Part shown: one piece after another, positions 8,025 to 9,513 of the stretch
Position numbering within the stretch: the first letter of the stretch is position 1
How the letters are laid out: every line of letters starts with the position of its first letter
DNA from: Promethearchaeota archaeon
GTDB taxonomy: Archaea > Asgardarchaeota > Lokiarchaeia > Sigyniarchaeales > SOKP01
Assembly (NCBI GenBank): GCA_016840165.1
Contig: JAEOSU010000008.1
Coordinates: 1-14,642, forward strand
Direction: 5' to 3'
DNA length: 14,642 bases
Notes under the pieces: model-generated
What the model saw: the letters and a program-made list of their open reading frames with translations, nothing else
The model's database searches: none
What the model was told of the DNA's origin: nothing
Made by a program: the position numbers and the translations under genes

Positions 8025-8366
8025 TTGGCATCAACTGGAAAATTTGAGAAATTGAGAAAAGATTTAGAAATCATTTCAGAAAAAACGCGTTATAAAATTC
8101 TATTGACGTTACTAGCAAGTGGGGAGAAATTGTCGTTTAACCAACTTAAAGAATTACTTCCTTCAGTTCCCGATAATAACCTGAATTACCATCTTTCTGT
8201 CTTGAAGGAAAAGAATTTTGTTAAAAATGAAAAAAGAACAGATTATAAGCGTTCAGAACCTCGCTCTTTCTACTCATTAAGTAAACATGCAATTGATATA
8301 TTGGACAATCTAGGTTTAAAAGCTGTCAAGGAAGAATTTCGCGCATTATTTGAACAGATGACCTAA
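8025..8366 (+). CDS. ArsR-like winged-helix transcriptional regulator
   Basis: TRYKILLTL...LSFNQLKELL...NNLNYHLSVLKEKNFV...FYSLS follows the ArsR/HxlR winged-HTH pattern. TTG start with GGGTGAG at 8013-8019. Confidence 0.85.
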   Translation: MASTGKFEKLRKDLEIISEKTRYKILLTLLASGEKLSFNQLKELLPSVPDNNLNYHLSVLKEKNFVKNEKRTDYKRSEPRSFYSLSKHAIDILDNLGLKAVKEEFRALFEQMT

Positions 8367-8407: not shown

Positions 8408-8447
8408 AAAAAAAAAGCATTTAATGAATTCTAAAATTAATTTTAGA
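8408..8447 (-). terminator. Putative terminator of the Lys-rich peptide gene: 18-bp palindrome followed by T9 on the - strand
   Basis: Perfect palindrome TCTAAAATTAATTTTAGA at 8430-8447 and an A9 run at 8408-8416, downstream of the 8461 stop. Confidence 0.5.
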
Positions 8448-8460
8448 GAGTTGATTTATA

Positions 8461-8568
8461 TTATTTCTTTTTTGCGGGAGCCTTTTTCTTTGGAGCAGGC
8501 TTTTTCTTTGCTGGTGCTTTCTTTTTAGCAGGTGCTTTTTTCTTTGCCGGAGCTTTCTTTTTTGCCAT
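8461..8568 (-). CDS. 35-aa Lys/Ala/Pro repeat peptide MAKKKAPAKKKAPAKKKAPAKKKPAPKKKAPAKKK (histone H1-tail-like)
   Basis: ATG at 8568 to TAA at 8461 bounds the repeat exactly. Composition 18 K, 10 A, 6 P, 1 M. The 18-bp units differ almost only at synonymous positions. Too short for the supplied ORF track. Confidence 0.85.
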   Translation of the reverse strand: MAKKKAPAKKKAPAKKKAPAKKKPAPKKKAPAKKK

Positions 8569-8991
8569 AATCTCTCATACTTCCCTTAGTCTATTGTTGT
8601 TATTAAATAGTAATTATGTGTGATTTATTCACATATATTCATTAATAAATGTTTTTATTATTTCACTTCCAATCCAATATTAATTCCAAATTGATTGGTT
8701 TAAACTTTTATCAATCATTATTACCAATATCTGTCCCAGATTTTGAAGATTTATTAATAAAATTAATTCTAATACACTTAAAAAATAAAATATTAATCGT
8801 AAGTTGAGCATAGAAAAACATATTTGTGAGGAGTAATGAGAAGATGGTAAAATTATTCTCGTTTTCTCTTTTTTCTCATGACAAATTGGAGAAAAATGGA
8901 TGAAAAATATTAAATACTCTTATTATTATATGGGTTTTGCAAATTTACTTTTCGACAAAATTATTCAAAACGTGGGGTTTAGGTATCGGAA

Positions 8992-9513
8992 ATGATGTAT
9001 GATGCTATCTTCAAAATCGTGATTTTTGGAGATGGAGGATGTGGTAAAACAACATTATTAAAGAGATATATTTCAAATTTATTTATGTCCGATACAAAAA
9101 TGACAATTGGGGTTGATTTTGAAACAAAAACCCTTACTTTTGATGGTATGCAAGTCAAGTTAATGATGTGGGATTTTGGTGGAGAAGAACGATTTAGATT
9201 TATGTTTCCAAATTATATCTGTGGTGCCATGGGAGGAATTTTAATGTACGATATCACGGATTACTCTTCACTTTCTCATGCAGTTGATTGGTTAACAGTA
9301 TTAAATAGAAGTGAAAATACGATTCCAATTGTATTGATCGGAGGAAAATCAGACTTAGATATTATCCGAGAGGTTTCTTACAAGGAAGGCTTAAAAGTTA
9401 TGAAGGATATGAACCTGCATGCTTTTTACGAGTGTTCTAGCAAAACAGGTGAAAATGTTGAAAAAGTATTTAATAATCTAGTAGAATGTATGCTAAATCT
9501 TGCTTTTGTATGA
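8992..9513 (+). CDS. Rab-like small GTPase (Ras superfamily), paralog 1
   Basis: G1 GDGGCGKT, G2 MTIGVDF, G3 WDFGGEERF, G4 GGKSDL, G5 ECSSK. Confidence 0.95.
   Translation: MMYDAIFKIVIFGDGGCGKTTLLKRYISNLFMSDTKMTIGVDFETKTLTFDGMQVKLMMWDFGGEERFRFMFPNYICGAMGGILMYDITDYSSLSHAVDWLTVLNRSENTIPIVLIGGKSDLDIIREVSYKEGLKVMKDMNLHAFYECSSKTGENVEKVFNNLVECMLNLAFV

Follow-up and report, generated by a model that had tools for sequence, protein, structure and literature searches.

The DNA analysed here (the window) is a stretch of 14,642 nucleotides from a Promethearchaeota archaeon, positions 1 to 14,642 of contig JAEOSU010000008.1. On its minus strand, positions 8461-8568 form a complete open reading frame (ORF) that begins with ATG, comprises 35 codons and ends with TAA. 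The encoded peptide reads MA(KKKAPA)3-KKKPAP-KKKAPA-KKK and consists of 18 Lys, 10 Ala, 6 Pro and 1 Met without any acidic residue, as the initial annotation of the window had recorded, with a computed charge of +17.8 (about +18) and a pI of 11.2; after removal of Met, the product has 34 residues and a mass of 3.62 kDa. The ORF uses AAA ten times, AAG eight times, GCA six times, GCT four times, CCT and CCA twice each, and CCG and CCC once each, with all four Pro codons present. In the DNA, Tandem Repeats Finder detects the repeat with a period of 18 and 5.7 copies at only 70% matches, indicating divergence between the units in DNA but none in the peptide, in which the repeat is better kept. 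A six-frame scan of the whole genome (3.6-Mb assembly, 31.6% G+C) returned this ORF as the sole K/A/P-dominated frame of its kind.

Genomic setting and absence from databases

The ORF is flanked by the convergent gene of an HTH_20 regulator (8025-8366) and the divergent gene of a Ras-family GTPase (8992-9513), and the long AT-rich upstream region pointed out earlier is an intergenic region of 423 nt with 24% G+C. A TATA-like box, TTTATTAA, is located on the minus strand at 8642..8649, 81 to 74 nt before the ATG, and is a predicted promoter from which a 5' UTR of about 50 nt would result. Directly before the start codon, the minus strand features a purine-rich, Shine-Dalgarno (SD)-like stretch (8572..8588) made up of TAAGGGAAG at 8580-8588 and GAGAG at 8572-8576, which fits the consensus GGAGACGT less well than the corresponding stretches of most loci do.

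Archaeal transcription is terminated by oligo-T tracts, and a T9 run on the minus strand (8408..8416), 44 nt past the stop codon, is predicted to be a terminator of this archaeal type. Between the stop codon and the T-run lies a perfect 16-nt A+T palindrome, CTAAAATT/AATTTTAG (8431..8446). Both elements had been described in the initial annotation and both are present, but only one of them recurs: a run of 6-12 T, located 18-62 nt past the stop, is kept in 33 of 33 orthologous loci, whereas no counterpart of the palindrome was seen by eye after the stop codon in these loci. By this sequence comparison, the palindrome is probably not an essential part of the micro-gene unit, and it may instead have to do with the convergent HTH gene ending at 8366.

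The earlier suspicion that such a gene is unannotated and missed by gene callers was supported by an exact-sequence lookup among about 15 billion collected protein predictions: 16 out of 16 versions of the peptide were absent, while the control, the genome's 77-aa histone, was present on 16 contigs. The peptide matched no Pfam family at E <= 0.01 and no sequence in the PDB, and no Rfam family was matched either, the one far sub-threshold match being located elsewhere in the region. A profile built from 20 peptides gave six matches and no short relatives among 1.84 billion representatives; all six are proteins of 176-383 aa with K/A/P tails, including two S1-domain proteins, one SWIB-domain protein, one weak match to PF07382 (Hc2-like) and two proteins without Pfam family. 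The nearest clusters in the ESM Atlas are unnamed hypothetical proteins of 36-43 aa, of low recognition value and to be taken as a lead only. In viral contigs, nine matches to the N-terminal pattern were obtained, none of which is a (KKKAPA)n mini-ORF. Full-text literature searches, made for the repeat and for archaeal proteins resembling linker histones, turned up no account of a peptide of this kind. Trypsin-based proteomics should be blind to it as well, given a lysine every few residues.

Relatives, gene architecture and selection

Homologous small ORFs in related genomes, on whose existence the initial proposal depended, were looked for and found. Using degenerate DNA patterns for the N-terminus and the internal repeat, equivalent short ORFs of 27-38 codons were uncovered in at least 46 species-level genomes, where counts from pattern searches are lower bounds and related genomes are not independent observations; reversed-pattern controls gave 0 or 1 match. 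A search of the relatives with the single protein was insensitive, with copies in 5 of 41 genomes, and the degenerate DNA patterns performed far better. The copies are distributed over 17 of 42 genomes in the genus of the window and 27 of 54 in a second genus, in which one copy is interrupted by a contig end, together with one copy in each of two more genera, and all four genera belong to one Loki-type Asgard family. A profile that recovered four out of five known copies gave no match in five genomes of the window's genus that are 99-100% complete, indicating that the peptide is dispensable and its distribution patchy.

Outside the family, no stand-alone copy with an ATG was detected in a 400-genome sample of the phylum, and the pattern matches opened there (36 loci) all lie within longer proteins, save one 36-codon frame without ATG. 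This K/A/P-rich frame runs from stop to stop on the plus strand of locus L285 (G319:C1:1834802-1836843) and is the only possible stand-alone case seen outside the studied family, as far as its sequence goes. A genome of the same order, inferred to be that of Lokiarchaeum ossiferum B35 from its histone ending in the anti-HLoB.1 antibody epitope, showed pattern matches in histone tails only.

The orthologous loci have a uniform architecture. In 32 of 32 loci, a TTTAWWW box falls within -95..-65, most often at exactly -81 (17 of 32), and GGAG, GAGG or GGGA is found at -22..-6 in 31 of 32 loci and in 0 of 1,600 control windows taken farther upstream in the same regions. ATG stands at the start of the ORF in all 33 loci, and the length differences between loci always amount to whole codons. 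In eight disjoint pairs of same-length ORFs, the differences at codon positions 1, 2 and 3 numbered 9, 17 and 114, respectively, with pS of 0.62, pN of 0.04 and pN/pS of 0.064, and two species were found to encode identical 37-residue peptides despite eight synonymous differences. Together with the 70% DNA matches of the repeat, the low pN/pS upholds the earlier reading of the synonymous variation as a sign of selection on the peptide instead of slippage. Judged from these comparisons, the micro-gene is a real, monocistronic, peptide-coding gene under selection, the product of which would be translated in vivo; given its architecture and the selection on it, it can be neither an artefact of slippage or misassembly, nor an antisense gene, nor the end of a decayed gene.

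The copies differ in number and length. One genome contains two small K/A/P ORFs of 31 and 38 codons, both on the minus strand and separated by about 320 nt (L265, G132:C29:3532-5591), which look like a tandem duplication of the micro-gene. Two further loci (L024:1501-1620 and L027:1501-1625, both plus strand) feature, after the stop codon (TAA or TAG), 10-12 further in-frame K/P/A codons followed by a second stop, which are read as recent truncations and suggest that the length of the peptide is loosely constrained (27-38 residues).

The recurrent neighbours of the gene, namely a 127-aa protein without Pfam family and nitroreductase-like and Fe-S proteins, reflect local, lineage-bound conservation only, and no chromatin gene was found among the conserved neighbours in the orthologous loci. 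The protein without Pfam family, 127-129 aa in length (L052:5542-5922, minus strand, and 10 other loci of the second genus), is encoded in the same orientation downstream of the peptide gene at a distance of about 330-2,200 nt, an arrangement that looks like local synteny and not an operon.

The N-terminus of a tailed histone and the K/A/P module

The MAKKKAPAKK-type N-terminal pattern is found at two ORFs only in the genome, that of the peptide and that of the 77-aa histone (G000:C105:948-1178, minus strand, identical to L034:948-1178), in which PF00808 is matched over residues 17-75 with 37.4 bits. Residues 1-10 of the peptide (MAKKKAPAKK) are identical to the N-terminal tail of this histone at 10 of 10 positions, with 27 of the first 30 nt common to both genes. 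By its sequence, the histone is of the tailed HLoB type, which is widespread in the family, and the genome contains at least four PF00808 matches above the cut-off. The tail preceding the YIAKAP motif comprises 13-14 residues in 37 of 44 histones of the family and 19-47 residues in five histones of a sister family. The upstream region of the 77-aa histone gene is very strongly conserved and ends in GTGGAGGAAT before the ATG.

The peptide gene and this histone gene have unrelated upstream regions, each conserved on its own, and the ten common residues are of low complexity, so common descent of the peptide and the histone tail is plausible from the sequences but not shown. A complementarity by which histones would have short cis tails where a free tail exists was considered and rejected, since it holds at the family level only, amounts to one evolutionary contrast and fails genome by genome.

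Tailed HLoB histones of cultured Lokiarchaeum, with abundant and modified tails, were described in a preprint of July 2026 (10.64898/2026.07.02.735847). According to this work, the lysines of HLoB tails are methylated and occasionally acetylated, the tail peptide 2-10 of L. ossiferum HLoB.2 is mostly modified when found, and histone-tail peptides are acetylated in vitro by the acetyltransferase LoHAT2, with Lys3 of the tail placed at the LoHAT2 active site in a predicted complex. Neither a tail-only gene nor a linker histone is mentioned in the preprint.

Histones are not the only proteins bearing this module. In another Asgard family, an Alba protein (PF01918; L232:1465-1860, plus strand, G178) features an N-terminal extension with (KKKAPA)3, and in another Asgard family, RNA polymerase subunit D (Rpb3-like, with Fe-S insert) ends in a C-terminal K/A/P repeat tail (L241:685-1626, plus strand, and L242-L244). 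AAA_5 ATPases of 420-449 aa (dynein-related or MoxR-like; L018:1501-2796, plus strand, L163, L167 and L222), found in several genera of the studied family, start with MAKKKAP or MAKKKTP followed by a long K/P/A-rich N-terminal tail, and S1 RNA-binding proteins with K/A/P tails are among the profile matches. A pattern scan of all species gave at least 120 stretches, in which the bacterial matches are a sample; these include proteins of 126-168 aa, HU-like by eye, with the same MAKKKAPAKK start and in some cases (KKKAPA) repeats (L040, L093, L062, L121 and others), such as those of Luteimonas (126 aa) and Pseudomonadales (159-168 aa). Two high-G+C bacterial contigs (L109 and L138) contain stand-alone K/A/P frames of 26-27 codons with the same start. 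The occurrence of the module on S1 proteins, RNA polymerase subunit D, Alba, HU and histones suggests a general nucleic-acid-binding polycation module which is not DNA-specific. Binding of the peptide to DNA is accordingly taken as presumptive, given that S1 proteins and RNA polymerase subunit D are among the carriers.

Known polycations, proposed action and competing explanations

The initial annotation had regarded the peptide as a candidate chromatin protein resembling the tail of a linker histone. The likeness in K/A/P composition to known DNA-condensing tails was borne out, and a chromatin connection gained from the identity of residues 1-10 with an HLoB-type N-terminal tail, while homology to H1 found no backing: the C-terminal domain of linker histones H1/H5 is likewise K/A/P-dominated, disordered and cationic, but the likeness is one of composition only, as the peptide lacks the winged-helix globular (H15) domain of PF00538, matches no Pfam family and has no detectable homology. 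The sequence affinity of the peptide is to the N-terminal tail of a core-type histone, not to H1. The initial annotation credited archaeal histones with no recognised H1 partner, a view that calls for an update: in a preprint of October 2026, a structural cluster resembling H1, and distinct from this peptide, is reported from Asgard archaea.

The HLoB-type tailed histones of Lokiarchaeia are, like the peptide, Lys-rich and predicted to be disordered, and have the MAKKKAPAKK start in common with it. Different from them, the peptide has no histone fold and no PF00808 match, is encoded by a separate gene with an unrelated promoter and 5' UTR conserved on their own, and exceeds the usual 13-14-residue tails of the family two- to threefold in length. 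The H1 of kinetoplastids consists of a tail only, which shows that no globular domain is needed for such a tail to work; the peptide is about half the size of this H1. Mycobacterial HupB/MDP1 has a Lys/Ala/Pro C-terminal tail, and tails of this kind raise DNA affinity and compaction; in the bacterial HU proteins recognised by eye the tails are fused to a folded DNA-binding domain, and the likeness to them is probably convergent low complexity. Fish protamines, with about 30-34 residues of which two-thirds are Arg, resemble the peptide (35 aa, +18) as stand-alone, very short products with a charge density of at least 0.5 and no predicted fold. In contrast to protamines, the peptide has Lys with regular A/P spacers and no Arg, is tied to no specialised cell type and has no homology to them, and whereas protamines replace histones, the histone genes (at least four PF00808 matches) are retained here. 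Chlamydial Hc2 and the bacterial H1-like nucleoproteins (PF07382) are also Lys/Ala-rich repeat polycations that condense the nucleoid, but the peptide is much shorter and does not match PF07382 at E <= 0.01. Each of the H1, histone-fold, Hc2, protamine and ribosomal-protein families is excluded as a home for the peptide, by a missing defining feature or a failed profile test; by analogy, its action probably resembles that of the H1 C-terminal domain, the kinetoplastid tail-only H1, HupB-type tails and protamines.

Lysine-rich histone tails, the H1 C-terminal domain, the K/A/P tails of bacterial HU proteins and protamines all neutralise phosphate charges and bring about compaction or bridging. 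AlphaFold2 (AF2) with the family alignment gave an extended chain without secondary structure (pTM 0.14). On balance, the peptide is rather probably an unstructured free polycation (+18) that binds DNA or chromatin in trans. Its most probable target would be the histone-wrapped chromosome, where each molecule would neutralise about 18 phosphate charges and promote compaction or bridging, so that an abundant free tail with its own gene would contribute in trans the effect that lysine-rich tails have in cis. A chromatin target is supported by a specific and unforeseen likeness, residues 1-10 being identical to those of the organism's own histone, and also by the K/A/P-extended histone tails of relatives and by the repeat in the N-terminal tails of Alba and bacterial HU proteins; the lack of DNA specificity of the K/A/P module, the low complexity of the ten common residues, the absence of a chromatin gene from the conserved neighbours and the patchy distribution count against it. 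A more elaborate form, doubtful at this stage, is that the free copy of the HLoB tail acts in trans on hypernucleosomes and is written, erased and read like the cis tails, buffering or competing with the archaeal 'histone code'.

An RNA- or ribosome-associated polycation comparable to eL41, bS22 and bL37, or a general counter-ion of RNA or polyphosphate, is the foremost of the competing explanations, though an unlikely one. The strong SD-like box and the fixed promoter suggest high expression, the proteins nearest to the profile include the two S1 RNA-binding-domain proteins, K/A/P tails are present on RNA polymerase subunit D, and eL41, bS22 and bL37 are like the peptide in size and charge. 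However, the known ultra-short ribosomal proteins mix Arg with Lys, lack Ala-Pro spacers and are near-universal in their clades, whereas the peptide has no Arg and regular Ala-Pro spacers, matches no ribosomal family of Pfam, is patchy even within one genus and has the N-terminus of a histone tail, not of a ribosomal protein. More improbable is a soluble histone-tail mimic, serving as substrate, sink or competitor for enzymes or readers of HLoB residues 2-10 and tuning modification instead of compaction. This reading draws on the identical residues 1-10, and on the modified tail of L. ossiferum HLoB.2 and the in vitro acetylation of tail peptides by LoHAT2 (10.64898/2026.07.02.735847), yet it is purely inferential and no writer or eraser gene was found beside the peptide gene; it is compatible with a free polycation acting on chromatin.

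The other candidates, i.e. an exported peptide, a non-coding repeat, a leader peptide and a pseudogene, are disfavoured by the tests. Polylysine-like peptides are membrane-active and these archaea live in close syntrophy, which would suit an exported polycation with antimicrobial action or an effect on the surface of partner cells; as the peptide has no signal peptide, hydrophobic segment or Cys, and no transporter or immunity gene is among the recurrent neighbours, export is very improbable. An equally slim chance is left to a non-coding locus, whether as a DNA repeat produced by slippage, a small RNA or an (FFFAGA)n ORF on the antisense strand. The wobble-aligned antisense frame is open in 33 of 33 loci with a pN/pS of 0.117, a low value that mirrors the sense frame by symmetry, but this frame has no start codon whatsoever in 17 of 33 loci, for which reason an antisense gene, considered for its low pN/pS, was rejected; moreover, the ATG, SD box, promoter and T-run are all on the sense strand in essentially all loci, the repeat units are 70% alike in DNA, and no Rfam family is matched. 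An attenuator that senses Lys, Ala or Pro, with the peptide as its leader and a downstream gene under its control, is extremely improbable: the run of Lys codons followed by a terminator-like T-run recalls bacterial attenuators in outline, but the genes downstream vary by locus and are often on the opposite strand (in the window, the convergent HTH gene comes next), no conserved co-oriented gene follows in the orthologous loci, and the whole peptide is under selection, not the Lys codons alone. Scarcely any probability, finally, attaches to the remnant of a decayed tailed histone, the detached tail which the initial annotation had itself named, along with assembly error, as a way to be wrong. 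The first ten codons are indeed common with the histone gene (27 of 30 nt), but the micro-gene has a different 5' region conserved in its own right, with its own promoter, SD box and terminator, no remnant of a histone fold past the stop codon, an intact tailed histone elsewhere in the genome, and purifying selection across 46 species.

Research on Asgard chromatin treats it as the point from which eukaryotic chromatin started, and a 2026 report described tailed histones with modified lysines in it; a conserved tail-only gene whose start is identical to the tail of the histone itself would add an unlisted component to this chromatin. Two testable questions are raised, namely whether lysine-rich tails act in trans on archaeal hypernucleosomes, and whether tails arise or travel as independent modules. 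Should the peptide be such a free tail, K/A/P tail modules would be independent genes able to fuse to histone, Alba or HU folds, which would offer a route by which histone tails and the H1 C-terminal domain could have originated. The micro-gene also shows that very short polycation genes are systematically left out when the genes of these genomes are inventoried.

Histones with extended tails are present in a few relatives, in which 19-26 residues precede YIAKAP through extra K/A/P units (L225:2249-2530, minus strand, in G151; L191 in G094; L177 in G106; L164 in G072). The longest of them, that of G151, has 94 aa, and by their sequences these proteins resemble, in effect, the peptide fused to a histone fold.
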